64,000 nucleotides of DNA, taken from an uncultured bacterium (GTDB lineage Bacteria > Patescibacteriota > Patescibacteriia > UBA9570 > XYC2-FULL-38-9). Below, in pieces: positions 8,733 through 64,000 of this stretch. The notes beneath the pieces were generated by a model, which saw only the letters and a list, made by a program, of their open reading frames with translations, was not told the DNA's origin and made no database searches. The first letter of the stretch is position 1; each line of letters opens with the position of its first letter. The stretch is from assembly GCA_937996685.1 (NCBI GenBank), contig CALKUP010000006.1, forward strand, positions 1-64,000, in the 5' to 3' direction. Position numbers and translations under genes: made by a program.

Positions 8733-10265
8733 ATGAAATTACGACGGTTGAACGAATATCAAAAATATCGCTTATTAGAAATGCTGCCTGGCACCGTTGT
8801 CTGGCTCGCACTTATTTCTGTTGTTGTATTGATTTTCGTCAAACCGCTCTGGATGATTTATGTAGCGATTTTATTTGACCTCTATTGGTTGCTGCGTGTC
8901 TGGTATTTTATTACATACCTGACAAAATCATGGCTTGCATATCGTAAAGCTGCCCAAATCGATTGGAATGCACGTGTTGAAACACACGCGAACTGGAAAG
9001 AATACAAGCACTTGGTCTTTCTGCCGACACTAGACGAAGATATTGATATTATTCGAGAGACATTAAACGCGATGAAACAATCGTTGTTTGATACCAAGCA
9101 AGTATACATCGTTCTTGCTGGAGAAGAGCGTCAACAAGAACACTTTGTTCCGATTGCAGACCAACTCAAAGCAGAGTACGCCGATGTATTTGGCGGTTTT
9201 TTGGTGACAGTCCATCCAAAAGACATTCCCGGTGAAATTGCTGCCAAAGGATCAAACTTGCATTATGCCGGCGGTCAAGCGCAGACCTGGGTTGATTCAA
9301 TGGGCTTTGATTATGCAAAGGTCATTGTATCTGCGTTTGATATCGATACAATCGTACACAAACAGTATTTTGCATGTTTAACAGCAATGTACATTGAGCA
9401 TCCAGACCCAACACGCAGCAGCTTTCAACCGCTTGCTGTATATAACAATAATGTCTGGGAATCATTTTCGTTTGCTCGTGTCGTTGCGAATTCAACAACG
9501 TTTTGGTTGATGGCAGAACTGGCTCGTCCAAAGCCACTGTGGACATTTTCTTCACATGCAATGAGTTTCAAAGCGTTAGTTGACGTTGGTTTTTGGCAGT
9601 CTGATATCGTGACTGAAGACTCTCGCATTTTCTTGCAATGCTATCTCTATTACGATGGTCAATATGAAGTAACACCGATGTATATTCCAGTATCAATGGA
9701 TACAGCGCATGGTGGAACACTCTGGGGAACAATGAAAAACCTCTACAAACAACAACGTCGTTGGGCGTGGGGAATTGAACATTTCCCATTCATGATTTGG
9801 CATTTCCGGAAGAACCAGCTCAATCCAAAGAAGTGGCATTTATTATTTAATTTGACTGAAGGGATGTTTTCTTGGGCAACTGCGCCACTGCTGATTACCA
9901 TGCTTGGGTATTTGCCGTTGTGGCTTATTACGCCTGATGATCAAGCAACTGTTATTGCGCAAACAGCACCATTTATTCTGCAATGGCTGATGCGTCTTGC
10001 GATGGTCGGTATTATTTTTTCCGCAACTTTAAATGTCTATTTACTTCCTCGAGAAATTCCCGGCAATCGTTTATTGAAAGTGCTCATCATGATTCTGCAA
10101 TGGCTGATGTTGCCAATTGCGCTTATTTTCTTCGGTTCTATTCCAGCTATTGATGCGCAAACACGCATGTTGTTTGGGAAATATCTCGGTTTTTATACTG
10201 CAAAAAAAGTCCGCAAAGAAGCATTGCCGCACCATGTTGAAGGTGGGACAGGGGCTCCGTTATAA
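8733..10265 (+). CDS. Processive family-2 glycosyltransferase (cellulose/chitin/hyaluronan-synthase-like), polytopic membrane protein
   Basis: Two N-terminal TMs, a cytoplasmic GT-A domain with D, DxD (FDIDT), TED (VTEDSRIF) and QxxRW (QQRRWAWG) motifs, then C-terminal TMs. Confidence 0.65.
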   Translation: MKLRRLNEYQKYRLLEMLPGTVVWLALISVVVLIFVKPLWMIYVAILFDLYWLLRVWYFITYLTKSWLAYRKAAQIDWNARVETHANWKEYKHLVFLPTLDEDIDIIRETLNAMKQSLFDTKQVYIVLAGEERQQEHFVPIADQLKAEYADVFGGFLVTVHPKDIPGEIAAKGSNLHYAGGQAQTWVDSMGFDYAKVIVSAFDIDTIVHKQYFACLTAMYIEHPDPTRSSFQPLAVYNNNVWESFSFARVVANSTTFWLMAELARPKPLWTFSSHAMSFKALVDVGFWQSDIVTEDSRIFLQCYLYYDGQYEVTPMYIPVSMDTAHGGTLWGTMKNLYKQQRRWAWGIEHFPFMIWHFRKNQLNPKKWHLLFNLTEGMFSWATAPLLITMLGYLPLWLITPDDQATVIAQTAPFILQWLMRLAMVGIIFSATLNVYLLPREIPGNRLLKVLIMILQWLMLPIALIFFGSIPAIDAQTRMLFGKYLGFYTAKKVRKEALPHHVEGGTGAPL

Positions 10266-11150
10266 AAATAATGCGAATTCCGGATACTGGGCGATAAACG
10301 ATTTGTAATCACGTGGGGTTTTTCCTTCCAGTTGCACAGTGTGGACTTCAATTGAATCTGTGTCTGCGTGATATGTAAGATCCAAAATCTTGATACGCTT
10401 GCCATTGATAATAGTAAAAATACCAGGCCATGGATGATATGCCCGGAATTTTCGATCAATCATGATCGGAGTATCCGTTGCCGTGATTTGGCCGTCTTCT
10501 TTTTTGAGTAAACCACACAAGATAGCACCGTCTTCTGGCTGAGGCGTAGGCATTTTTCCATGTTCAACTCGGTCTTTCAATGCTGTGATAAGCAGTTCAG
10601 CTCCTTTGGCGCTGTAGCGATCATGGAGAGTTTGAATGGTGTCTCGAGGTGAAAGAGGTTCACGATACTGCAACAAAACAGGACCAGTATCCATGCCCGC
10701 ATCCATTTGCATAATCGAAATACCAGACTCGGTATCGCCATGCAGCAGTGTTGATTGCATCGGGGATGCGCCGCGATATTTTGGCAACAATGATGGGTGT
10801 ACATTCACGCAACCAAAGCGGGGGATATCGAGGAGTTCTTGCGGTAAAATATTGCCGTAGACAACAAGAACAATCAGATCAGGTTGTAGAGCCGCAATGG
10901 CTTCAAGCGCAGCTGGTCCGTCAGCACTTTTTAAGCCGAGTCTCCGCGGCTGAAGTATCGGCACTTCTGGTAAGTGTTCTTGCGCCCATTGTTTCACAGC
11001 AGAAGCCGTGACAACTTGTTTGCGACCAACTGGTTTATCTGGTTGCGTTACAACCCCAACAACAGTGGTTTCAGCGGCTATTTTTTGTAAAGAAGGGACA
11101 GCAAAGTCCGGTGTTCCAAAAAAAATTGTCCGAGCAGATTTGAGATTCAT
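10260..11150 (-). CDS. fmt: Methionyl-tRNA formyltransferase
   Basis: FGTPDFAVPSL start, the HPSLLPKYRGASP formyltransferase motif and the C-terminal Fmt domain. Follows def. Confidence 0.9.
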   Translation of the reverse strand: MNLKSARTIFFGTPDFAVPSLQKIAAETTVVGVVTQPDKPVGRKQVVTASAVKQWAQEHLPEVPILQPRRLGLKSADGPAALEAIAALQPDLIVLVVYGNILPQELLDIPRFGCVNVHPSLLPKYRGASPMQSTLLHGDTESGISIMQMDAGMDTGPVLLQYREPLSPRDTIQTLHDRYSAKGAELLITALKDRVEHGKMPTPQPEDGAILCGLLKKEDGQITATDTPIMIDRKFRAYHPWPGIFTIINGKRIKILDLTYHADTDSIEVHTVQLEGKTPRDYKSFIAQYPEFALFL

Positions 11151-48274: not shown

Positions 48275-50119
48275 TTACTTCTGATTGGCTTTCACGATCG
48301 CTTTAATACGACGAATGCCAGCCGCTGAAGACTTTTCGGAAGTAATGTGGAATTCTTCCAGCTCTTCTGTGTTTTCAACGTGTGGGCCACCACAAATTTC
48401 AATCGCAAATGGATTGTCCTCGGGTCCGATATAATAGACCTTCACTTTATTCCCAAGGCGCGCATATTCATCATCAAAATAGCCAATTGCACCTAATGCC
48501 TTTGCTTCATCAACGTCTAATTCTTTCCAGAATACTGGTTGCTTTAACGCAATTTGTTCGTTAATCACACGATCAAGTTCGGTTTTTTCTTCTGGTGTCA
48601 GCGCCTTGTCGTAATTAAAATCAAAGCGCAAGCGATCTGGTGTAATATTTGAACCCTTTTGCATGATTTGCTCGCCAAGCATATTTTTCAATGCTTTGTG
48701 CAACAAATGTGTTGCCGTATGCAAACGACGTGATTCAATCGAATGGTCAGCGAGACCGCCTTTGAACTTTTTCATACTCCCCGCTCGAGACGTATTTTGA
48801 TGTTTTTCAAATTCTTGATCAAACGACATTTCATCAACATTCGCTCCCCGTTCACGGGCGAGCTCAACAGTCATTTCAATTGGAAAGCCGTACGTTGAAA
48901 ACAAAATAAATGCATCGTGTCCTGAAATACTTTGCTTATCTTTTTCAATCAACTTTTCAAATTCTTTCATTCCTTTTTCAAGGGTTGCGCCAAATTTTTG
49001 CTCTTCTGCCCCAAGCCACTCAAGAACACGAGATGAATTTTCCACCAACTCTGGATATGCCTCTCCGTACATTGTCGTCACCTCTTGCGCAAGTGTTGAT
49101 AAAAACTCACCAGTCGCGCCTAATGCACGGCCTTCGCGAATTGCACGACGAATCAACCGTCGAACGATATAGCCTTGATCAACATTACTTGGTGGAATGC
49201 CAAAATGATCACCCATAATAAACACAACGGTTCGCAAATGATCTGCAATAATACGCATTCCAGCCATATGATTACCTTCATATGTTTTGCCGGTCACTGC
49301 TTCAATTTTCTTTATCAGTTGTTGAAAAATATCGATTTCAAAGACTGTCTGCGCGCCTTGAGAGACCATCGCAAGACGTTCTAATCCCCAGCCGACATCA
49401 ACGTTTTGTTTTGGCAATGTATCAAAGCCGCCTTTTCCATCTTTTGCGTATTGCATGAAGACGTCGTTTCCAATTTCGATAATATCACCGCGATCACACG
49501 CCGCAACAAATTCATCGTGCGATAAATCACCAAGCTCGCCAGTTGTATCATAAAAAATTTCTGTATCTGGACCGCATGGGCCAGTATTTCCTGGAAGATC
49601 CCAAAAATTATCTTTGCGTCCTAAAAAGTAAATGCGATCCTCGGGCATTCCAGCGCGCTTCCAAATATCAGCCGCCTGCGTATCTTGCGGAATATCGTGC
49701 TCGCCTTCAAAACATGTGACATATAAACGAGACAGCGGTAAGCCAAGTCCGACTTCTTCCGATGTCATAAATTCAAATGTCCACGCAATGGTGTCTTCTT
49801 TAAAATAATCACCGAGACTCCAAAAACCGAGCATTTCAAAAAAGGTCAAATGACGATTATCACCGACTTCATCAATATCAATGGTGCGAACGCATTTCTG
49901 GGAATCCGTCAGACGCGTGCCTTCTGGGTGTGGCTCGCCCATTAAATATGGAACCAGCGGATACATCCCGGAGTTCGTAAACAGTAATGTTGGGTCGTTT
50001 TCTGGAATCAATGAACCAGAAGGAATCACGACGTGACCTTTTGACTCAAAATACGCAAGAAAGCGGCGGCGGATTTCATTTGTCGACAAGATATGTGCTG
50101 GATGTTGCATAAAAATCAA
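48275..50119 (-). CDS. alaS: Alanyl-tRNA synthetase, short form (catalytic + tRNA-recognition + editing domains; no C-Ala domain)
   Basis: FTNSGM and QKCVRT motifs, GDxxHLTFFEMLGFWSLGDYFK, the editing-domain HTATHLLH zinc site and a CGGPHV motif. 614 aa. Confidence 0.9.
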   Translation of the reverse strand: MIFMQHPAHILSTNEIRRRFLAYFESKGHVVIPSGSLIPENDPTLLFTNSGMYPLVPYLMGEPHPEGTRLTDSQKCVRTIDIDEVGDNRHLTFFEMLGFWSLGDYFKEDTIAWTFEFMTSEEVGLGLPLSRLYVTCFEGEHDIPQDTQAADIWKRAGMPEDRIYFLGRKDNFWDLPGNTGPCGPDTEIFYDTTGELGDLSHDEFVAACDRGDIIEIGNDVFMQYAKDGKGGFDTLPKQNVDVGWGLERLAMVSQGAQTVFEIDIFQQLIKKIEAVTGKTYEGNHMAGMRIIADHLRTVVFIMGDHFGIPPSNVDQGYIVRRLIRRAIREGRALGATGEFLSTLAQEVTTMYGEAYPELVENSSRVLEWLGAEEQKFGATLEKGMKEFEKLIEKDKQSISGHDAFILFSTYGFPIEMTVELARERGANVDEMSFDQEFEKHQNTSRAGSMKKFKGGLADHSIESRRLHTATHLLHKALKNMLGEQIMQKGSNITPDRLRFDFNYDKALTPEEKTELDRVINEQIALKQPVFWKELDVDEAKALGAIGYFDDEYARLGNKVKVYYIGPEDNPFAIEICGGPHVENTEELEEFHITSEKSSAAGIRRIKAIVKANQK

Positions 50120-54172: not shown

Positions 54173-54622
54173 CTACGCAGCCAGCAATCGCGCATCTTCA
54201 AGAAGTGTTTCAAAATATTCTTTTGAAGACGGATATGACAAGCGCTCAAGGACAGCTTGTCCGTCACACCACTCGCCTCCATCCACTTCTGACATATCGA
54301 GCGGTAAACCCGTTTCTTCAATGACACGCATTAAGAAAAAGACAACATGATTTCGGTCACCATTTGGTGCTGTGTATGCATGCTCCGGCAAACGCTTCAC
54401 GATTTCGCATCGAAAACCAGTTTCTTCCAAAACCTCGCGCAATGCCCCTTCTTTCAATGTTTCCCCTGAATCAATATGCCCTTTCGGAAATGACCAATCG
54501 TTGTATCGATGACGATGAATTAAGAAAAATTCGGTGTGCCCACCAACTGTTCGCATGATAATTCCTCCAGCTTTGGTATGTTGTTGTTCATTCATCCCTG
54601 TAGTATACAGGAGTTTACCCAT
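54173..54622 (-). CDS. NUDIX hydrolase
   Basis: Nudix box GHIDSGETLKEGALREVLEETG. Confidence 0.8.
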   Translation of the reverse strand: MGKLLYTTGMNEQQHTKAGGIIMRTVGGHTEFFLIHRHRYNDWSFPKGHIDSGETLKEGALREVLEETGFRCEIVKRLPEHAYTAPNGDRNHVVFFLMRVIEETGLPLDMSEVDGGEWCDGQAVLERLSYPSSKEYFETLLEDARLLAA

Positions 54623-55775
54623 TCAGACGAATCACACGCTCGCAACTCTCAAGTGTACGCTGCGCAAAATGCTCCCATGAAAACCGTTCCGTATTTTTTT
54701 TGCCAAGAAGTTGATACCGCTCACGTAGTTCACGATCTTCAATAATTCCCCGAATTGCTCGACTAAGACTCTTGCTATCAAGCACATCACACCACAATAC
54801 AGAATCATGGAGCGTTTCTTGTAGTGACGAATGAAAGCCAGCGATCACTGGAACGCCATGCATCTGCGCTTCGAGCGGCGGAAATCCAAACCCTTCAAAT
54901 AACGATGGGTAGACGCACACCGTCGCGTTTGCATAGAGTTGTTGCAGGGCAGCATCTGACGCGTAATCAAGCACATGAATCTGCGTATTTCCTTGCACTC
55001 GCTCGGCAATTTCATCAGCTCGATATCCGAACTTTCCAATCAACACAAGCTGCGCTGTCGGGTGTGATTGCTGCAGCTGCGTGAACGCATCAATCAGCGC
55101 GGTCGTGTTCTTTCGTGGTTCAATTGTTCCAACAGCAACAATCGTCGGCTGTCGCGGATCAATGCCATACGTCGCTTGTATATCGACCGGCGCGTCAACA
55201 TCTGATCGAAGTGGAACGCCTGGGTATGTGACACTGATCTGATCTGCAGGCAATGTGTATATCACTTGCGCGTCTGCAAATGTTGCGAGCGAAACAGCCA
55301 CGACTTCAGCGGCGTGATGTAACTGCGCACGCGGCCGCAACAACCAATGACGAACAACGCTTTTCACACTTTGCTCTTCGCTCATGCGCACGAATGAAAA
55401 ATCATGCACCACTTGAATAACGGGAATATCATCAGACAATGGAGTGAACTGCAAATTTGGTTGAATCACCACATCAACATCACCAAATAATTGACGCAAT
55501 GAAGGAAAACCAAAAAACGATGCAGCGGTCAATAGTTTATTTGGTATCGATCGAAACTTCCAGGTAATGTGTGCCGTTTCAGGAATATGCAACTGATCAA
55601 CAATGCGCTTGCGTTCTGCTGGCGCACGCAATGACTGTCCGGAAAAAAACAAAACGAACTCGTAGTTTTCGGGGTCTGCATATTGCAATACCGATTCAAC
55701 GAGTCCTTTTGTATATTGAGACACACCAGATGGGTATGCCTCTTGCAGCGCGCGACAGTCAATACCAATTTTCAT
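54615..55775 (-). CDS. Glycosyltransferase family 4
   Basis: MKIGIDCRAL start and the motif YPSLFEGFGFPPLEAQMHGVPVIAG. The longer ORF to 55835 would overlap the upstream gene. Confidence 0.8.
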   Translation of the reverse strand: MKIGIDCRALQEAYPSGVSQYTKGLVESVLQYADPENYEFVLFFSGQSLRAPAERKRIVDQLHIPETAHITWKFRSIPNKLLTAASFFGFPSLRQLFGDVDVVIQPNLQFTPLSDDIPVIQVVHDFSFVRMSEEQSVKSVVRHWLLRPRAQLHHAAEVVAVSLATFADAQVIYTLPADQISVTYPGVPLRSDVDAPVDIQATYGIDPRQPTIVAVGTIEPRKNTTALIDAFTQLQQSHPTAQLVLIGKFGYRADEIAERVQGNTQIHVLDYASDAALQQLYANATVCVYPSLFEGFGFPPLEAQMHGVPVIAGFHSSLQETLHDSVLWCDVLDSKSLSRAIRGIIEDRELRERYQLLGKKNTERFSWEHFAQRTLESCERVIRLNG

Positions 55776-55791
55776 CAGACCAGTCCCGCAA

Positions 55792-56409
55792 TTATGCTTT
55801 TCCCCCTTCGCGGATATATTGACGAACGTAGACAACGAAGATGCTCAAGAAGAACCCCGCAACAACACCAAGCCCGAGCGCCATCCATTGATTTAACTTG
55901 CCAGCAACAACAACTGGTGTTTGCGCTTTGACAACAAATTGCGTTTGGTCACCAGATTGCACTTGAGACGCTGATTCATCACTCACTGTTTTCGCAACAG
56001 AGTCTGCTAATTTTTTCGCTGTCTCTTCATTAAAGTCATAAAACAATACAACAAATTGTTGACTTGAATATTGTTTCGCTTGAAAACGACCAGTAAATGA
56101 ATTCACTGTTTTAATTGTATATCCTTGACCTGCGTTATCATACACCTTGCCCACAAACGCTGGCGACTTAAACCAACTCATTAAATGCTGTGTAAACAAC
56201 TCAGCACCTTTCAAATCGTAATACGCGCCATATTGATATTCAGGAGATGATGCACGGTTTGCAATTGCAACATCAAACGCAACAACCGCATTGTATTTTG
56301 TTGGCTGAGTGACAGCCCATGCAAACGCACTGATAGCGCACAATAGGGTGAATAAGAGAATAAACCATTGTGATTGCTGAAGGATTTCTTTATGTGTTGT
56401 GACTTTCAT
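55792..56409 (-). CDS. Wzz/CpsC-like polysaccharide chain-length determinant (two-TM, short form)
   Basis: N-terminal TM followed by a PTKY-type motif (QPTKYNAVVAF), a ~130-aa extracytoplasmic domain, and a C-terminal TM. Confidence 0.45.
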   Translation of the reverse strand: MKVTTHKEILQQSQWFILLFTLLCAISAFAWAVTQPTKYNAVVAFDVAIANRASSPEYQYGAYYDLKGAELFTQHLMSWFKSPAFVGKVYDNAGQGYTIKTVNSFTGRFQAKQYSSQQFVVLFYDFNEETAKKLADSVAKTVSDESASQVQSGDQTQFVVKAQTPVVVAGKLNQWMALGLGVVAGFFLSIFVVYVRQYIREGGKA

Positions 56410-56423
56410 ATATATAAATGCAA

Positions 56424-57539
56424 TTAAGTAGTTTTTTGAAATGCGTTGTAGCTCTCTGTCACAAATGACTCTATTTCATTTGTAAACCGCTCGAGACTAA
56501 AGGTCAAGGCGCGCTCTCGAATCACAGCTGGATCATACCGCATTGGATCAAAATCAATCAAGAGATTCGCAAGATCCTCCCAACTTTGATGCGCCATCAA
56601 TTCTCCGTGAACACCTGGGACAACAATCTCTTTTGCACCAGCTTTATTCAACCCAATCACTGGACGACCAGCTGCAAGCGCTTCAATCATCGTGATGCCA
56701 AAATCTTCTTCTTGTGGATTAATGAACGCGAGACAATGTTCAAACAACGCTTTTCGCTCGGCATCTGGAACACGTCCAAGAAATTCAATATTCGCATTGT
56801 TCCCGGCTTGTCGTTTCAGATCGGCAAGCGCTGGACCAGATCCAAAAATTTTCAACTTCTTCCCGGTCTTCATACAAGCCTCAACAATTAAATCAAATCG
56901 TTTATACGGAACCAGTCGTCCGCCTGCTAAATAATAATCACCTACCTCTTCTTTTGACACAGGGGTAAAATCCGCAACATCAACTGGCGGATAAATCACA
57001 ACACTGTCGCGTTTGTAATATTTCCGTAACCGCTTTTCAACAGCGTTTGAATTTGTAATAAAGTAATCAACGCGGTCTGACGCTAAACGATCCCACATAC
57101 GAATCCGTGTCAGCAATAATTGCAAAATGTTTTTGACAAATCGATTCCCAGACATATCAGTCACATATGAATGCGTGTCACTCCACAAAAAACGCGTCGG
57201 TGTGTGGCAATATGAAATATGCACTGTTTCCGGACGCGTGATCACCCCTTTCGCGAACGAAGAGGTCGTTGACAGCACGACATCAAATTCAGACAAATCA
57301 TAACTCTCGACCGCCGTTGGCATGAGGGGAAAATACCATTGATATTTTTTGACACCAAGCGGGAGACGTTGAATAAATGATGTTCGAATATCTTTTTTCA
57401 AAAAATATGGATGGGCGTGCTTTGGATCATGCACAACAACATACACCGGCGCATCAGGCCAAATCTCACAAAAGGCACGCAACACATTTTCAGCGCCACC
57501 GTCTTGCGCAAGATGATCATGAACTAAAGCAATTTTCAT
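56424..57539 (-). CDS. Glycosyltransferase family 4
   Basis: MKIALVHDHLAQDGGAENV start and a GT-B C-terminal EX7E region. Confidence 0.8.
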   Translation of the reverse strand: MKIALVHDHLAQDGGAENVLRAFCEIWPDAPVYVVVHDPKHAHPYFLKKDIRTSFIQRLPLGVKKYQWYFPLMPTAVESYDLSEFDVVLSTTSSFAKGVITRPETVHISYCHTPTRFLWSDTHSYVTDMSGNRFVKNILQLLLTRIRMWDRLASDRVDYFITNSNAVEKRLRKYYKRDSVVIYPPVDVADFTPVSKEEVGDYYLAGGRLVPYKRFDLIVEACMKTGKKLKIFGSGPALADLKRQAGNNANIEFLGRVPDAERKALFEHCLAFINPQEEDFGITMIEALAAGRPVIGLNKAGAKEIVVPGVHGELMAHQSWEDLANLLIDFDPMRYDPAVIRERALTFSLERFTNEIESFVTESYNAFQKTT

Positions 57540-57543
57540 ACGT

Positions 57544-58962
57544 CTATAATGTGTTTCGTTTTTTTAATAACGCGAAGGGTGTTTTTAATACAATAATCAC
57601 ATCCAGCCACAATGCCCAGTGTTCCATATAATATGTATCCAATCGCACCTCATCTTCAAAATCGAGGTCAGATCGCCCAGTCACTTGCGCGAGCCCGGTA
57701 ATTCCCGGCTTCATATATAATACACGTTTATGATGTTTTTGGTATTGCGCCACTTCTTCCGGCAAATGTGGACGCGGCCCCACCAAACTCATATCCCCTT
57801 TTAATACTAAGAAAAATTCTGGTAATTCATCAATACTAAACCGACGAATAAACGAACCAACCCGCGTCACTCGAGGATCATCGATAATTTTCACCATTGG
57901 CGATCCTTTTCGGGCATTGCGTTCTTGCAACTGCTCGTCATAACGCAGCGAATCGGTGTTTTGTTTCATTGAGCGAAATTTGAAATACCCAAACGGTTTG
58001 CCATATTGTCCAATCCGTTTTAACGAAGTGCCGTCATCTTTCTTGCTGAAAAAAATCGGGAAACCAGAATCAATAACAATCGCAACAGCCGCAGCGAGCA
58101 TAATTGGAGATGATGCAATAATCAAAAACAGACTCCCAACAATATCAAATAATCGTTTCAAAATTCTTCCCCACCCTTCGAGCGGTGTTTTTTTCACTTC
58201 GACAATTGGAATTCCTCCGATTGGTGCAATCGAAATTGTGCCGACCGGCATCTCAGCAATGGACGCGGCATATTTAAACACCAAATGATACTCATCACAA
58301 AAATCAACGAGCCGTTTCATGGTTTCACGATCCGATCCTCCGTCAGTCAATAACAGCTCTTCAATGTCTCGTGTCTCCGCCAGCGCTTGCAACTCACGTT
58401 CTACTTCGACCGTAAAGCTATTGTATGATTTTTGAATCGCATATCCGAGTGTTGGTTTTTGCGCAAACTCTTCACGAATCACATTCGCAATGTGTCCTTC
58501 CCCAATTAACGCAACCCGTGTTAAACCAATCCCTTTTGTAAACAGACGTCGCTCAATCACAATGACAGCGATGCGGAACAACAAAACGTATACTAAAGAA
58601 AAAACAAACGCCGTTAAAATAATAAACCGAGATGAAAATAAATCACGATTGACGAAGACGAGTACAATCACTGTCAGCACGCCCGTTGCGCACGACACGA
58701 ATACTTTTCGAATTTCATCAATGATCCGACGGTTGCCATCGATTTGATACAAGCCGTTCCACCAAAAAATCACAATCCAGAGAGCAGCCACAAGCAGCAA
58801 TGCTGTAATAAATTGCTGACGTGGGATTGCGTAAATCGCCGGAGGCAGTTGCTCAATACTTTCGTTAAAACGAACAGCGTACGCCGTTAAACCTGCGAGT
58901 ACGATAAAAAAATAATCAAATGGAACCAACAAGACGCTGAGAGCGAGTTCAATTTTTTTCAT
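57544..58962 (-). CDS. Polyprenyl-phosphate hexose-1-phosphate transferase (WbaP/CpsE-like bacterial sugar transferase), priming enzyme
   Basis: Five N-terminal TMs and the C-terminal Bac_transf domain: KRLFDIVGSLFLIIASSPIMLAAA...FKFRSM...DELPEFFLVLKGDMSLVGPRP. Confidence 0.85.
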   Translation of the reverse strand: MKKIELALSVLLVPFDYFFIVLAGLTAYAVRFNESIEQLPPAIYAIPRQQFITALLLVAALWIVIFWWNGLYQIDGNRRIIDEIRKVFVSCATGVLTVIVLVFVNRDLFSSRFIILTAFVFSLVYVLLFRIAVIVIERRLFTKGIGLTRVALIGEGHIANVIREEFAQKPTLGYAIQKSYNSFTVEVERELQALAETRDIEELLLTDGGSDRETMKRLVDFCDEYHLVFKYAASIAEMPVGTISIAPIGGIPIVEVKKTPLEGWGRILKRLFDIVGSLFLIIASSPIMLAAAVAIVIDSGFPIFFSKKDDGTSLKRIGQYGKPFGYFKFRSMKQNTDSLRYDEQLQERNARKGSPMVKIIDDPRVTRVGSFIRRFSIDELPEFFLVLKGDMSLVGPRPHLPEEVAQYQKHHKRVLYMKPGITGLAQVTGRSDLDFEDEVRLDTYYMEHWALWLDVIIVLKTPFALLKKRNTL

Positions 58963-59445: not shown

Positions 59446-59591
59446 ATTGAGCAGCTATCCAAAGAACCAGTACAGCGCACACATAAGCACAATTCGATAC
59501 AATATACGTTTTTTCGACTTGTCTGTGCTGGATGAACATACAATATTTTAAGCGATTAGTCAATATTTTTTGTTGTGATATACTACAGGAT

Positions 59592-60905
59592 ATGTCAGAA
59601 CGATATACAACCAGACCGCGGTACACAAATGCTGTAGAAACACCCATTCAGTCTATAGCTGTCGACAACCGAACCCAGCACAGCGCTGAACCAACAATGG
59701 ATTTTGACAGCGACACCGAAGCGTCAACGTCTTTTGTTGCAAAGCCTGATGCGCCTCAAGCATCACAAGGTCGTGTGTCATCACAAGACGCACTCGCACA
59801 CCCCGGCGCAGAACAAGAACACACAGCTGTGGAGCACTCAAACAATCGCAATCCTGAACTCAATGCCCAGCGCGCAACACTCTATGCGCTTGTGGATGAA
59901 ATGAAAACTGATCATTCATGGGAAAATGCGTTTATCTACAACAGACTGATTCATCGCATGGGCCATCCGAAAGTCACTATCAGGGACAAGAAACCGTATC
60001 GCATTGATAAATTTCTCGGCCGAGGAGGCTTCAGCAGGACGCTTACTGTCTCTCAAGAAACTGGGCGCATGGATCGCGCACAATTTGTGATGAAAGTATC
60101 AAAACCGTTTTCGCTTGCCGCAATGAACGGAAGCGATCGACAGGCAGCATCGCATGCAAAAAATGCTTTACTTGAAATTGAAGCACTCCGACGCCTGTCA
60201 ACACTCGGCACGGAGAACCCAGCACCTGCTCTCGAAGCTGCCCAGCTCATTCCAGATCCTGACAACATGGATTCACGCATTGCAACAATTGTGATGGAAA
60301 AAATTCATGGCGAAACACTGCATGATTTTTTAGCAGAATCACTCTCATTAGATACTGGTATTGCGATTATTCAAAAAATGATTCACGCAATTTCTGTCAT
60401 TCACGAAGCTGGCATTATTCATGGCGACTTAAAAATGGAAAACATCATGGTGTATGACGAAAACCCTGCAAACACACCAAACGCAGAGGCCATTGATACT
60501 CCTCATTATCAAGTAAAAATTATTGACTTTGGCGGCTGCACCATCACAGATGAGCCGGATAGCCGTAAAGCCCAACAACGACTCTTGCACAACATTCCGC
60601 TACCAACATATCGCAAACGCGAGTTGTATCAATATACTCGTGACTTTGGACTGCCAAGGAAAACAGACGTCGCCGCACTCCGCGATGAATATAGTCTTGG
60701 TCATGTCATTCATACATATTTCACAGGTCTCTGGCGCAGAATTGCTATTGGGGAATATCCAAACACCATTTCACAACAAGTCGATACAATCGTGCATGGA
60801 TTAACCAGCACGGATGAAGCAACGCACATCACAATACTTGAAGCCGAACAAAAAATGGCAGCGGTGCATGCAGCAATTCTTAAATATCAAAACAAGGCGG
60901 ATTAA
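59592..60905 (+). CDS. Eukaryotic-like Ser/Thr protein kinase (non-RD: HGDLK), with disordered N-terminal region
   Basis: G-loop GRGGFS, VAIK-like FVMKVSKP, catalytic loop IIHGDLKMENIM, DFG (IIDFGG). I chose the ATG at 59592, which has an AGGA RBS. Confidence 0.8.
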   Translation: MSERYTTRPRYTNAVETPIQSIAVDNRTQHSAEPTMDFDSDTEASTSFVAKPDAPQASQGRVSSQDALAHPGAEQEHTAVEHSNNRNPELNAQRATLYALVDEMKTDHSWENAFIYNRLIHRMGHPKVTIRDKKPYRIDKFLGRGGFSRTLTVSQETGRMDRAQFVMKVSKPFSLAAMNGSDRQAASHAKNALLEIEALRRLSTLGTENPAPALEAAQLIPDPDNMDSRIATIVMEKIHGETLHDFLAESLSLDTGIAIIQKMIHAISVIHEAGIIHGDLKMENIMVYDENPANTPNAEAIDTPHYQVKIIDFGGCTITDEPDSRKAQQRLLHNIPLPTYRKRELYQYTRDFGLPRKTDVAALRDEYSLGHVIHTYFTGLWRRIAIGEYPNTISQQVDTIVHGLTSTDEATHITILEAEQKMAAVHAAILKYQNKAD

Positions 60906-61969
60906 TATTGCATCTTGTCGATTGTAATCGACGGATCACGCTGAAGCGCTTCAATATCAGACACCACTTCACCACGAAGTAATTTTTGATATCCGGCATA
61001 TCCAATCATTGCAGCGTTATCCGTTGAAAATTGCGGCGCGGGAAAAAATGTTGGAACACCAAGCTCTTTCATTGCAGAACGCAGTCGAGCACGTAATGTT
61101 TTATTCGCACTGACACCACCGCCAAGCAAAAACATTTTTGGTTGATACTCCTTCACCGCTTTAACTGTTTTATACACTAAGACATCAACAATTGCCTCTT
61201 CAACAGACGCACAATAATCTGGGATGATGCTTGCGAATGAATCCCCAAGCTCTGCTTTTAATGTGTTCGTGTTATAGAGACAGGCTGTTTTTAAACCGGA
61301 AAAACTAAAATGGTAATTATCACTATTTTTCATCGGACGTGGGAGCGGGTATTTCATTGGGTCGCCAGTTTCTGCGAATTTCGCGAGCACTTGCGCACCA
61401 GGATATCCGAGGTCTAACATACGCGCGATTTTATCAAACGCCTCGCCTGCCGCATCATCAAGCGTTTGTCCAATAATTGAATATGCGCCGAATTTCTCAG
61501 ACAAAATAAGCTCTGTATGCCCGCCAGACACACACAACGCCATTAATGGAAACGCAACTTCTTCGATGCCTGAATAAGTTTTGCCGGATGAGTTTTTAAG
61601 CAGTGCCGACAGTGCGTGACCTTCCATGTGATCCACTGCAATGAGCGGTAAATGATATTCTTGCGCTAATTGCTTTGCGTGACGGACTCCCACCTCAAGC
61701 GCTGGAGCAAGGCCTGGGCCGTATGTCACTGCAATGACTGTCAGACGATCAGCAGTTTTTAAGCCTGAGCGTTTTAACGCTGTCGCCACACACCCTTCAA
61801 TCATTTTTTCATGCTCACGCCGCGCAAGACTCGGAACAATGCCGCCCCACTCGCGATGCACATCAATTTGAGACGACACAATACTCGACAGCACACAATC
61901 ATTTTTCAAAACCGCGACAGAGGTGTCGTCGCATGATGTATCAATCGCTAAAATATATGAATCTTTCAT
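60902..61969 (-). CDS. tsaD: tRNA N6-adenosine threonylcarbamoyltransferase TsaD (Kae1/YgjD family)
   Basis: ILAIDTSCDDTSVAV...HMEGH; ASKHA fold with a metal-binding HxxH. Confidence 0.9.
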   Translation of the reverse strand: MKDSYILAIDTSCDDTSVAVLKNDCVLSSIVSSQIDVHREWGGIVPSLARREHEKMIEGCVATALKRSGLKTADRLTVIAVTYGPGLAPALEVGVRHAKQLAQEYHLPLIAVDHMEGHALSALLKNSSGKTYSGIEEVAFPLMALCVSGGHTELILSEKFGAYSIIGQTLDDAAGEAFDKIARMLDLGYPGAQVLAKFAETGDPMKYPLPRPMKNSDNYHFSFSGLKTACLYNTNTLKAELGDSFASIIPDYCASVEEAIVDVLVYKTVKAVKEYQPKMFLLGGGVSANKTLRARLRSAMKELGVPTFFPAPQFSTDNAAMIGYAGYQKLLRGEVVSDIEALQRDPSITIDKMQY

Positions 61970-61974
61970 ATCAC

Positions 61975-63060
61975 CTATTCGTGCGACAGAATTTCATATT
62001 CAAACAATCGCTCGGTTTCTGATGGCGCGGTAATCACAATTTTCACAACCGTCGCATCTCCGAGATATTGATCGATGTGCCCGGTGACTTTGTTCGCCCA
62101 TTCAATCACTGTCACATTTGGTGCGTGAAACATTTTTTCTGGCTCAAGTCCATCAATTTCCGTTGGTTCAAATAATCGATACGCATCAATATGATACAGC
62201 TTCACAGCCTTTTTCCCGATACGCGCTGGATATTCGCGGCAAATAATAAATGTCGGCGACACAACAATGTCTTGCACTTGTAACCGCTCGGCAAGCGCTT
62301 TTGTGAAATGCGTCTTCCCTGCTCCGAGGTCGCCTTGCAACAAAAATACAATCGCCTTTTTTCCAAGACTGGTATTCAGCTTTTCCCACAACTCTGTCAC
62401 AAAACGTGTCGTGTCCGCAAGAGAACTCGCCAAAAACTGTTTTTTATCTTCAAATGACAAGGCGCCTTCTCGAACAATATGCACTGTGTCGAGTGTTGTA
62501 TCAACGACTGTACTTGGTTTTCGTTTTGGAAGTCTGCCAGCGTCAATAATTAAATCGATGAGATCTTTTTGTTTTTTCGAAATACTACTCAACACATCGT
62601 CAATCGTGTACGGCGTTTTTTGATATGATGCATTTGCAGATGTTGCCGTAATTGGTGCGTCATATTGCTTTAATAACTCCAGCACTAACGGATAATCCGG
62701 AATACGCACCCCTTGTGTTCCCATGCTTGACGCCACGTGATCCGCGAGATTTCCATATCCTTTTGAAATAACAGTAATCGGGCCTGGCAAAAAATTATCA
62801 TACATATTTTTCGCTGCATGATTCATTTGAATATAGCGCATGGCCATTTTTTTATCAGCCACAGCGATCGATAACGGTTTGTCTGCTCGCTTGGACTTAT
62901 ACGCCAACAACTTGTCAATCGCCTCTTGATTGGTTGCATCTGCGCCAATCCCGTAACAGGTTTCTGTCGGGTAAATAACTAAGCCGCCAGCAGAAAGAAC
63001 CTCAATGGCTTTTGCGATGACTTCAGCGTGATTTGTTGGTGTGAGTGTAATGCGTTCCAT
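61975..63060 (-). CDS. Fusion protein: TsaC/YrdC (threonylcarbamoyl-AMP synthase) N-terminal domain + TsaE/YjeE (P-loop ATPase) C-terminal domain
   Basis: N-half: GGLVIYPTETCYGIGADATNQEAIDKLLAYKSKRADKPLSI (YrdC). C-half: LQGDLGAGKTHFTKALAERL...VVSPTFII (TsaE Walker A and SPTF). Confidence 0.8.
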   Translation of the reverse strand: MERITLTPTNHAEVIAKAIEVLSAGGLVIYPTETCYGIGADATNQEAIDKLLAYKSKRADKPLSIAVADKKMAMRYIQMNHAAKNMYDNFLPGPITVISKGYGNLADHVASSMGTQGVRIPDYPLVLELLKQYDAPITATSANASYQKTPYTIDDVLSSISKKQKDLIDLIIDAGRLPKRKPSTVVDTTLDTVHIVREGALSFEDKKQFLASSLADTTRFVTELWEKLNTSLGKKAIVFLLQGDLGAGKTHFTKALAERLQVQDIVVSPTFIICREYPARIGKKAVKLYHIDAYRLFEPTEIDGLEPEKMFHAPNVTVIEWANKVTGHIDQYLGDATVVKIVITAPSETERLFEYEILSHE

Positions 63061-63145
63061 GTGTATATTATTTGCTCAAACGCTATCATTATTATAAACA
63101 AAAATCAACCGCGCCTGGGTTGATCTTTGAACTATCATCGTTCTG

Positions 63146-63301
63146 CTATTTCTTCTTTTTTGGACGATTGTTGTTGGTTGGCTTTTTTGCTGCTTTTGCT
63201 TCAAGCATTGCCTTTTTGATCGCCAAGCGTTTCTTTGTTTTCTTTGGTGATTTCATTGCTGCTGTTGCGTTTCCGCCCATTGCACCCCATCGTTTTGCCA
63301 T
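63146..63301 (-). CDS. Possible small Lys-rich basic protein (51 aa)
   Basis: MAKRWGAMGGNATAAMKSPKKTKKRLAIKKAMLEAKAAKKPTNNNRPKKKK. A TTGACA-like hexamer lies just upstream but there is no clear RBS, so it may not be a gene. Confidence 0.25.
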   Translation of the reverse strand: MAKRWGAMGGNATAAMKSPKKTKKRLAIKKAMLEAKAAKKPTNNNRPKKKK

Positions 63302-63384: not shown

Positions 63385-64000
63385 CTATTTTTGCAGTGAG
63401 AAGTTGCCGTTTTTCGCAAGTTTCCAAGTGCGAGTCACTCGCTGCCCTGATTTTCCATAAGTAACGGTCACTTGTTTTTTAGCTTTATTCACAGACAGAA
63501 CAGGCTTTGAGAGGTCAGTAATTGAAAACTGTTGGGTTTTTTTGGTCGTCAACGCATTTCCGCTCGTTAATCGAAACGCAAAGACGCGGGCGGTTTTTTG
63601 TCTGGCTGTCGCGATAAACACAGAATCATAGCCGGCATACACCTTTTTCACAGCGATGCGATATTGTGCAGATGGCAGGGTTTTTGTTCCAATCGCCTTT
63701 TTTGCTGTGCGCTCGCCGTTCACGAACACGCGAATGTCTTTGCCGTTTGTGACAACGAGACGCTTTTTGTCTGTTGACAGTGCGTAGCGAAAATTCACAG
63801 ATGAGCCATACGGCGTAATTGTATCTGTCGCAGCATCAGCATACACCACGGTGACACGATTGTTGGTTTTTGTGACTGTTGTAATCTTGCCGTGATCTGT
63901 ATTTTCTTCTACTGGAGTAGGCTCTGGATCTCGAGCAACTGCTGCATTCACTGTCACTGTCCGAGTTGCAGTTGTTGTGTTACTTGAATCATCTGTTGCT
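63385..64000 (-). CDS. Hypothetical beta-rich protein; N-terminus beyond window end
   Basis: The reading frame stays open to nt 64000 with no in-frame stop upstream of the listed start. No recognisable family. Confidence 0.5.
   Translation of the reverse strand, partial: ATDDSSNTTTATRTVTVNAAVARDPEPTPVEENTDHGKITTVTKTNNRVTVVYADAATDTITPYGSSVNFRYALSTDKKRLVVTNGKDIRVFVNGERTAKKAIGTKTLPSAQYRIAVKKVYAGYDSVFIATARQKTARVFAFRLTSGNALTTKKTQQFSITDLSKPVLSVNKAKKQVTVTYGKSGQRVTRTWKLAKNGNFSLQK

Follow-up and report, generated by a model that had tools for sequence, protein, structure and literature searches.

The tsaC-tsaE fusion gene and its operon

Contig CALKUP010000006.1 of an uncultured Patescibacteriota bacterium carries, within the 64,000 nucleotides analysed here (positions 1 to 64,000, henceforth the window), two adjacent genes for the synthesis of N6-threonylcarbamoyladenosine (t6A), a universal modification of tRNA. 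The first is a single continuous open reading frame (ORF) that joins TsaC, the synthase of threonylcarbamoyl-AMP (TC-AMP), to the P-loop ATPase TsaE; the second is tsaD, which encodes the threonylcarbamoyl transferase. Because both genes are carried by the minus strand, transcription runs from the fusion gene into tsaD. An initial annotation of the sequence had already proposed the fusion and quoted the motifs GDLGAGKT and SPTF, both of which are present in the ORF. It was likewise right about the spacing of the two genes, though not in placing tsaD upstream: in the direction of transcription the fusion comes first, and 5 nt separate its stop codon from the start of tsaD (junction sequence TAGGTGATATG; ...GAA TAG GTGAT ATG AAA...). 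Ahead of the fusion gene, a consensus scan finds a terminator-like hairpin at 63129..63099, followed by TTTATAATAA about 30 nt before the start codon. Together, the fusion gene and tsaD form a two-gene operon, the fusion probably encoding a genuine bifunctional t6A protein, and the system as a whole is the known bacterial t6A machinery in an apparently undescribed form that is widespread, ancient and mechanistically suggestive (coordinates in Table 1).

The assignment of the two halves to YrdC (PF01300) and TsaE (TIGR00150) is borne out by profile searches, which match both families at scores that chance cannot explain. In the N-terminal half, PF01300 (Sua5/YciO/YrdC) covers residues 20-199 with an E-value of 1.2e-47 (162.1 bits against a Pfam cut-off of 25.1), and the NCBIfam model for TC-AMP synthase, TIGR00057, scores 175.6 bits against a cut-off of 123.2. 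The YrdC alpha/beta fold is recovered by Foldseek, with target-normalised TM-scores of 0.84 to Escherichia coli YrdC (1hru) and 0.83 to 1k7j, and Sua5 and TsaC2 chains are matched with E-values near 1e-18. The best alignment partners of this half are the archaeal MTH1692, Thermotoga maritima TsaC2 and Sulfolobus tokodaii Sua5, the last two giving higher scores than E. coli TsaC. It is the K-x-R / S-x-N tetrad that separates TsaC from its paralogue YciO, and the catalytic positions of the window protein are K55, K57/R58, S141 and N143. Of the 81 family members, 80 have an arginine at one or the other of positions 57 and 58. The TsaC half ends at a conserved R-[E/P]-G, which is where the linker of Sua5 would begin, and TsaE therefore takes the place that the SUA5 domain occupies in Sua5/TsaC2; no SUA5 domain was detected in the fusion, for which Pfam gives PF01300 and PF02367 alone. 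From its sequence, the TsaC half is predicted to make TC-AMP from threonine, bicarbonate and ATP.

The C-terminal half carries PF02367 (TsaE) on residues 222-345 (E-value 7.8e-29, 100.7 bits against a cut-off of 26.6) and scores 85.5 bits with TIGR00150, whose cut-off is 60.1. Its motif positions match Thr43, Thr63/Phe64, Tyr82/Arg83 and Trp109 of T. maritima TsaE, which loses ATPase activity or multi-turnover t6A synthesis, or is weakened in one of them, when most of these residues are mutated: Thr63 and Phe64 are required for both, Tyr82 and Arg83 are functionally required, and Trp109 places the water that attacks the gamma-phosphate (PMC6614819). In its fold this half resembles HI0065, YdiB and T. 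maritima TsaE, with Foldseek TM-scores (normalised to the target) of 0.76 for 1htw, 0.73 for 6s84_E, 0.72 for 5np9 and 0.69 for 6n9a_E. With the curated cut-off exceeded, the TsaE motifs kept and the fold that of TsaE, this half is not the generic P-loop NTPase that the initial annotation had considered as an alternative. Indeed, the listed matches of an exhaustive search with the TsaE half are standalone-size proteins of about 140-170 aa interleaved with some 20 fusion-length representatives, and since free and fused forms interleave (at 31-50% identity), the fused half is an ordinary TsaE. The helix region through which TsaE contacts TsaB stays acidic and is partly conserved, with E301 present in 76 of 81 members. 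By analogy with characterised TsaE proteins, this half is predicted to bind TsaB-TsaD in an ATP-dependent manner and to undergo ATPase activation.

The partner gene is no less clearly assigned. Its product scores 367.2 bits with TIGR03723, the NCBIfam model for bacterial TsaD (cut-off 296.1), and 170.6 bits with arch_KAE1, under the cut-off of 375. The H-x-x-x-H metal-binding pair aligns with His109 and His113 of T. maritima TsaD, and equivalents of T. maritima D11, K166 and K213 are kept; these three residues contact TsaE and its ATP, thereby completing the ATPase site of TsaE (PMC6614819). One might nonetheless suppose that the YrdC-like half serves something other than t6A, be it a YciO-like function or a carbamoylation of the HypF/TobZ kind, and that the P-loop half belongs to no particular family. 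At 82.6 bits, NF007919, the model for TsaC of the E. coli type, does stay under its cut-off of 175, and the window protein has K-x-K-R in place of a strict K-x-R. Against this stand the scores of TIGR00057 and TIGR00150, both above their cut-offs, the presence of S141 and N143, the arginine at 57 or 58 in nearly all members, the conserved operon with tsaD and the complete set of TsaE-specific switch motifs, and we consider such an explanation very improbable.

A further alternative is that a frameshift or a lost stop codon has artificially merged two genes. The initial annotation had asked for a check for a frameshift near nt 62450; at the junction, about nt 62448, there is none, as the frame is open and the architecture is continuous in homologues. 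The same architecture, at much the same length, recurs in 120 independent clusters from several sources and in 80 genomes, and alignments of 41 homologues (alignment A1) and of 81 homologues pass through the junction unbroken. The artefact is thus refuted, and we give it next to no credence. The distance from R197, an invariant residue at the end of TsaC, to G243 in the Walker A motif is exactly 45 residues in 58 of the 81 members, within a range of 42-57. Methionine, the one start residue considered, is absent from residues 200-215 of the junction. In the AlphaFold model, mean pLDDT (predicted local distance difference test) is 90.5, local values falling below 50 at residues 192-197; among the Foldseek matches, no solved chain spans both halves as TsaC plus TsaE. 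The two halves give correlated distance matrices across genomes (Pearson 0.65; 0 of 999 permutations in a Mantel test), so the fusion is inherited as a unit and its halves co-evolve.

Table 1. Features of the fusion operon and of the converging kinase gene, in window coordinates
Feature	Residues	Position	Strand	Basis and remarks
tsaC-tsaE fusion gene		61975..63060	minus	Uninterrupted ORF, 361 aa + stop, ATG start; Pfam and NCBIfam domains
TsaC (YrdC-type TC-AMP synthase) domain	10-203	62452..63033	minus	Pfam, NCBIfam, fold, alignment
Inter-domain hinge TVHIVREGALSFED	192-205	62446..62487	minus	Sole low-confidence stretch of the predicted model
TsaE (YjeE-type P-loop ATPase) domain	205-361	61978..62448	minus	Pfam, NCBIfam, fold
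Walker A GDLGAGKT	243-250	62311..62334	minus	G243, G246, G248, K249, T250 invariant in 81/81
Switch I SPTF	268-271	62248..62259	minus	S268-P269 invariant; T270 in 78/81; position 271 F or Y
Switch II HIDAYR	290-295	62176..62193	minus	H290, D292 invariant; 294 Y or W; R295 in 76/81
Walker-B-like pair E-W	320-321	62098..62103	minus	Invariant in 81/81
Spacer, fusion stop to tsaD start		61970..61974	minus	5 nt, TAG GTGAT ATG
tsaD		60902..61969	minus	355 aa; TIGR03723 bacterial-type threonylcarbamoyl transferase
Upstream non-coding region		63061..63145	minus	Putative operon boundary and promoter; consensus scan and sequence only, no evidence of function
Ser/Thr protein kinase gene		59532..60905	plus	457 aa; long N-terminal region without family match

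Distribution and gene neighbourhood

A protein search with the fusion returned 2,982 matches, and our counts of architecture rest on the best 120 listed, which come from NCBI, ENA, JGI and Logan assemblies. All 120 contain both Pfam domains, with lengths of about 350-410 aa and query coverage of 85-100% (mostly above 90%). When one genome was scanned per GTDB species, alignment A1 gave 482 related stretches, the best 80 of which supply the locus counts (loci are cited below by number, with the prefix L). The full fusion is encoded in 80 of these 80 loci, among them a complete chromosome, and 70 have tsaD downstream of it on the same strand, often overlapping the fusion gene by 4 nt. Complete or nearly complete carriers include OY970314.1 (a Woesebacteria chromosome of 983 kb), CAYOFQ010000001.1 (1.57 Mb), DAITMO010000001.1 and JBEKNE010000001.1. 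The placing of tsaD supports the tight functional association with TsaD that the initial annotation had proposed, and the frequent overlap suggests translational coupling in these relatives. By their labels, the carriers are mainly Patescibacteria (the Candidate Phyla Radiation, CPR), together with several Planctomycetota and archaeal metagenome-assembled genomes labelled as DPANN. The Patescibacteria include Kerfeld-, Magasanik-, Nomura-, Woese-, Dojka-, Roizman-, Shapiro-, Beckwith- and Peribacteria, as well as Microgenomates and Paceibacterota, and the closest relatives of the window protein, at up to 67% identity, belong to the Kerfeld-/Magasanik-/Nomurabacteria group. The fusion architecture is old, conserved and widespread in ultra-small bacteria. 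Viral contigs scanned with the fusion alignment yielded no relatives.

Among the Planctomycetota, the fusion is carried by large genomes (loci L012-L018), of which L013 is the complete 9.5-Mb genome of Candidatus Uabimicrobium amorphum (NZ_AP019860.1). In a neighbour-joining tree, the planctomycete fusions group beside the CPR clade of the window, which suggests horizontal transfer, and the archaeal-labelled ones form one clade; the pattern fits a single origin followed by spread that included horizontal transfer. Some labels call for caution in their own right. Locus L006 (CAZERP010000019.1) is labelled Candidatus Micrarchaeota, its fusion nests within the Kerfeld/Magasanik group, and the label is probably mistaken. 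Likewise, many third party annotation (TPA) records labelled "uncultured Gammaproteobacteria", "Pseudomonadales" or "Saccharibacteria" carry CPR-like fusions, and the taxonomic labels of such records look unreliable.

The archaeal clade comprises ten fusions, and the tsaCE-tsaD operon lies on the DPANN-labelled contigs L020, L021, L022, L023, L026, L027, L030, L031, L032 and L035, with the fusion at about 10001-11080 in most. Archaeal genomes of this kind include JAGVVZ01, JBAZUY01, CAYMPD01 and WJKS01. The flanks of L030 hold genes that score above archaeal cut-offs (uS2_euk_arch, 243 against 211; an ORC1-type replication protein, 536 against 501; archaeal DnaG, 444 against 300; a proteasome assembly chaperone), along with aIF2-alpha and Hjc, which fall slightly under theirs. 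The TsaD of the same contig is of the bacterial type, with 367.6 against 296 for TIGR03723 and 174 against 375 for arch_KAE1. Nearly all of the gene order of L030 is shared by L021, most of it by L026, and the genes downstream of the operon by L020; an archaeal Dph6 domain occurs in L031, and an archaeal-type RqcH in L022. Judged by this gene content, the contigs carrying the archaeal-clade operons are genuinely archaeal. Confirmation genome-wide would set them apart from other archaea, for which Kae1/KEOPS is the rule, and the archaeal operon would then let one see, in a natural setting, if the module can do without TsaB.

In a number of loci, the fusion gene and tsaD are separated by other genes. 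One CPR sub-clade has a putative HIT-family gene (recognised by reading the sequence) on the opposite strand between the two (L039, 2915-3310; L057, 2803-3228; L062, 12067-12873, in two copies; L064, 3073-3474; L068, 5875-6297), a curious placement given that its neighbours handle an acyl-adenylate-like intermediate. Elsewhere, the intervening genes encode uncharacterised proteins of about 270 aa (L027, 8491-9306; L030, 11074-11889; L007, 1136-1930) or about 130 aa (L022, 11060-11452; L023, 4110-4511); the two that were checked matched no NCBIfam model. We considered the inserted genes as substitutes for TsaB and rejected them, as they are sporadic and lineage-specific and therefore unlikely to be general partners.

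In the window, a Ser/Thr protein kinase gene converges on tsaD, the two stop codons overlapping at 60902-60905. As a bacterial analogue of Bud32 the kinase was rejected: Bud32 models reach 38 bits against a cut-off of 125, do so in the catalytic-loop region only and perform no better than generic kinase models. Moreover, no kinase homologue lies beside tsaD in the 80 loci, the two weak matches (L013, L014) being far from t6A genes, and since the kinase is not conserved near tsaD, its adjacency looks incidental. Next to the kinase gene is a surface-polysaccharide cluster at 54615-58962 (minus strand) with a polyprenyl glycosylphosphotransferase, two GT4 glycosyltransferases and a weak Wzz-like protein, and just beyond it a NUDIX hydrolase is encoded at 54173-54622. 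On the other side, just upstream of the operon, a possible lysine-rich ORF of 51 aa (MAKRWGAMGG...PKKKK) at 63149-63301 on the minus strand encodes a small, basic product with no Pfam family and no conservation across the 80 related loci; it may not be a gene, and we do not count it among the components of the t6A operon. Further upstream, a minus-strand ORF of 190 aa at 63385-63957 is without a Pfam or NCBIfam match and without a homologue in the 80 loci. Besides the glycosyltransferase cluster, the window also holds a bacterial DnaE, a Clp-family AAA+ ATPase with ClpB-like domains and an alanyl-tRNA synthetase. The last of these (48275-50119, minus strand) has only 614 aa, made up of the catalytic core and a tRNA_SAD domain; its E. 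coli counterpart, at about 875 aa, is much longer.

TsaB and the proposed coupling of TC-AMP supply to the TsaE cycle

The initial annotation had reasoned that the fusion implies a TsaB that is dispensable, encoded elsewhere or replaced. This does not follow: the three options cover every possibility, so the fusion itself implies nothing about TsaB. What can be said comes from searches. Run against all ORFs of the window and of the 80 loci, E. coli TsaB (100% identical to PDB chain 4wq4_C; phmmer --max) matched only TsaD proteins; no tsaB thus turned up in the window, nor in the 10 kb around any of the 80 fusions, and a six-frame scan of the 1.38 Mb revealed no GPGSFTG-type TsaB motifs. As a positive control, 120 metagenome loci were selected by a TsaB DNA motif; they supplied no TsaB of CPR origin and appear to be low-GC and non-CPR, judging from five that were inspected and that resemble Firmicutes or Bacteroidetes in gene content. 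The same query detected TsaB in essentially all 120, of which roughly 27 carry a free tsaE no more than some hundreds of bases away from tsaB, 10 have tsaD nearby and none has a fusion. These searches, together with a control that works, indicate that the fusion operon is consistently without a linked tsaB, a result that concerns linkage and not absence from the genomes.

Two readings of this absence have to be weighed. TsaE sits in the asymmetric TsaB-TsaD interface, contacts both proteins and binds neither homodimer (PMC6009658), and this need for the interface favours a tsaB encoded elsewhere over one that is dispensable. We accordingly consider it likely that TsaB is encoded elsewhere in the genome, and the explanation that we prefer below assumes as much. 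The other reading is a two-gene t6A machine without TsaB, in which TsaD would act as a homodimer, like mitochondrial Qri7, and TsaC-TsaE would provide both TC-AMP and the reset ATPase. It draws on the lack of tsaB around all 80 fusions (1.38 Mb) where the same query succeeds in the controls, some of which keep a free tsaE close to tsaB. It draws also on two mycoplasmas in which both TsaB and TsaE are missing (PMC4615747). Moreover, the operon is kept on contigs of archaea, which as a domain lack a TsaB of their own, and this hints that it can work without a co-transferred TsaB. In its fullest form, tsaCE-tsaD would be a self-sufficient, horizontally mobile and TsaB-free unit, its TsaD forming a self-pair or, in archaea, joining a protein of the host, and its fusion coupling TC-AMP synthesis to the ATP-driven reset of TsaD, that has moved from Patescibacteria to Planctomycetota and DPANN archaea and supplements or replaces Sua5 and KEOPS there; we regard this extended scenario as improbable. 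The need of TsaE for the TsaB-TsaD interface speaks against any such machine, as do the acidic TsaB-contacting helix with its E301, the fact that tsaB is unlinked from tsaD in many ordinary bacteria, and the Planctomycetota carriers, which probably have TsaB. On balance, a system lacking TsaB altogether seems unlikely to us.

The explanation that best accounts for the data as a whole, and one that we hold to be likely, is that of a bifunctional fusion and tsaD operon in which TC-AMP is made and loaded beside TsaD. It draws on the identity of both halves and of TsaD, the conserved operon, the joint inheritance of the halves and their near-fixed spacing, the prediction of two confident domains with a single hinge, and the functional TsaE residues that are kept. 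Its steps are modelled on the T. maritima and E. coli systems. The N-terminal TsaC domain would make the labile TC-AMP from threonine, bicarbonate and ATP, and the ATP-bound TsaE domain would dock where the active site of TsaD opens, in the manner of free TsaE in T. maritima. Given the short hinge of fixed length, docking would keep the synthase by the TsaD pocket, such that TC-AMP could be loaded locally and not by free diffusion. TsaE at the entrance of the TsaD active site competes with tRNA (PMC6009658); hydrolysis of ATP would free the fusion protein, tRNA would enter the vacated site, and TsaD would transfer the threonylcarbamoyl group to A37. The supply of the intermediate would thereby be coupled to the reset step, and the fusion, together with tight coupling of the genes, would fix a 1:1:1 ratio of the three activities.

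Several observations weigh against this explanation. No tsaB came to light in the sequence searched, be it the 80 loci or the window, where a phmmer search of the ORFs with TsaD found none either, so that a tsaB encoded elsewhere is an assumption; and in six of the seven planctomycete loci (L012-L017) tsaD is not beside the fusion. When the protein is aligned to T. maritima TsaC2 and S. tokodaii Sua5, its catalytic K-x-R reads K55-S-K57-R58 (K-S-K-R). The predicted template modelling score (pTM) of the AlphaFold model is 0.57, which in combination with the high pLDDT shows that the model is confident of each domain but leaves their relative orientation unpredicted. Furthermore, TsaN, in which TsaD and TsaC are fused, has no channel between these domains (PMC10484737), so that a fusion alone is no proof of substrate hand-over.

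The latter two points lend themselves to the main rival, which is gene economy: in very small genomes the fusion would ensure co-expression and equal amounts of its two domains, which would act independently, just like free TsaC and TsaE, and without handing over TC-AMP. That the carriers are mostly Patescibacteria with reduced genomes is in keeping with such a role, as is the finding that the fused TsaE half forms no distinct sequence subfamily; the unpredicted orientation of the domains and the example of TsaN, in which fused t6A domains need no channel, point the same way. A mere tether, however, would be free to vary, and the junction is near-invariant, at 45 residues in 58 of 81 members. 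Nor does economy readily explain why the fusion is kept in a genome as large as the 9.5 Mb of Candidatus Uabimicrobium and after transfer to archaea. Gene economy by itself is therefore, in our assessment, a rather doubtful account, albeit the most serious competitor of local loading of TC-AMP at TsaD.

Significance and comparison with known t6A systems

Full-text literature searches, to which most subscription papers were out of reach, returned no description of a fused TsaC-TsaE protein, nor any paper that connects t6A genes to CPR bacteria; a paper naming both tsaB and Patescibacteria proved irrelevant. A 2014 survey (PMC4615747), a 2022 review (PMC9654439) and the TsaN paper (PMC10484737) mention no TsaC-TsaE fusion, a 2023 study of Sua5/TsaC evolution (PMC10321239) mentions neither TsaE nor CPR, and the supplements of a CPR genomics paper contain no KEGG orthology identifiers for tsaB or tsaE. 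In the databases these proteins are already present as "threonylcarbamoyl-AMP synthase", and what is new is thus the description and not the sequence. This naming has a practical consequence, in that genomes whose fusion proteins bear that name only are wrongly scored as being without TsaE. More fundamentally, how TC-AMP gets from TsaC to TsaD is a stated open question (PMC10484737), and so are a possible part of TsaC in the TsaE-driven reset and the order in which the partners bind (PMC6614819). An ancient natural fusion with a fixed junction bears on both delivery and reset: it suggests that TC-AMP may be delivered while TsaE is docked on TsaD, and it is a ready-made construct for structural and kinetic tests.

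The nearest relative of the system is the canonical bacterial one, in which TsaC or TsaC2 works with TsaB-TsaD-TsaE (E. coli and T. maritima; structures 6N9A and 6S84). The three catalytic families and their motifs are common to both, and presumably they also share their chemistry and a reset cycle driven by ATP. The canonical TsaC and TsaE are nevertheless separate proteins, TsaE being free and about 150 aa long, whereas here they are one polypeptide with a junction of fixed length; and where a common canonical cluster reads tsaE-tsaB-(rimI)-tsaD, as in control loci L155 and L157, the present one reads tsaCE-tsaD without tsaB. Sua5/TsaC2, composed of YrdC, a linker and SUA5, is a two-domain protein of similar size whose second domain begins at the same point, past R-[PE]-G, but that domain is the Rossmann-like SUA5 and not a P-loop TsaE ATPase.

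Known variants of t6A systems include the loss of TsaE in some symbionts, and other natural fusions offer more distant parallels. For bacterial t6A genes, the 2014 survey (PMC4615747) notes a single fusion of TsaC, MG259 of Mycoplasma genitalium, a TsaC/HemK protein whose partner is a methyltransferase and no subunit of the t6A machinery. The archaeal Kae1-Bud32 fusion (MJ1130, HVO_1895) is likewise a natural t6A fusion that ties a regulatory ATPase to a catalytic partner, and it has been taken as evidence of functional linkage (PMC4615747). There, however, the ATPase is joined to the transferase, Kae1, and here to the TC-AMP synthase; Bud32 and TsaE, moreover, are unrelated and bind different faces of the transferase (PMC6009658). 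Finally, the pandoravirus protein TsaN (TsaD-TsaC-SUA5-TcdA) and TobZ/HypF, which combine YrdC-like and Kae1-like domains, also bring an adenylate-forming YrdC domain near its consumer. TobZ and HypF form a real inter-domain channel, and TsaN has neither TsaE nor TsaB and does not modify tRNA (PMC10484737). In TsaN, TobZ and HypF the synthase is fused directly to the transferase, whereas in the TsaC-TsaE protein the link is indirect, by way of an ATPase that docks on the transferase.

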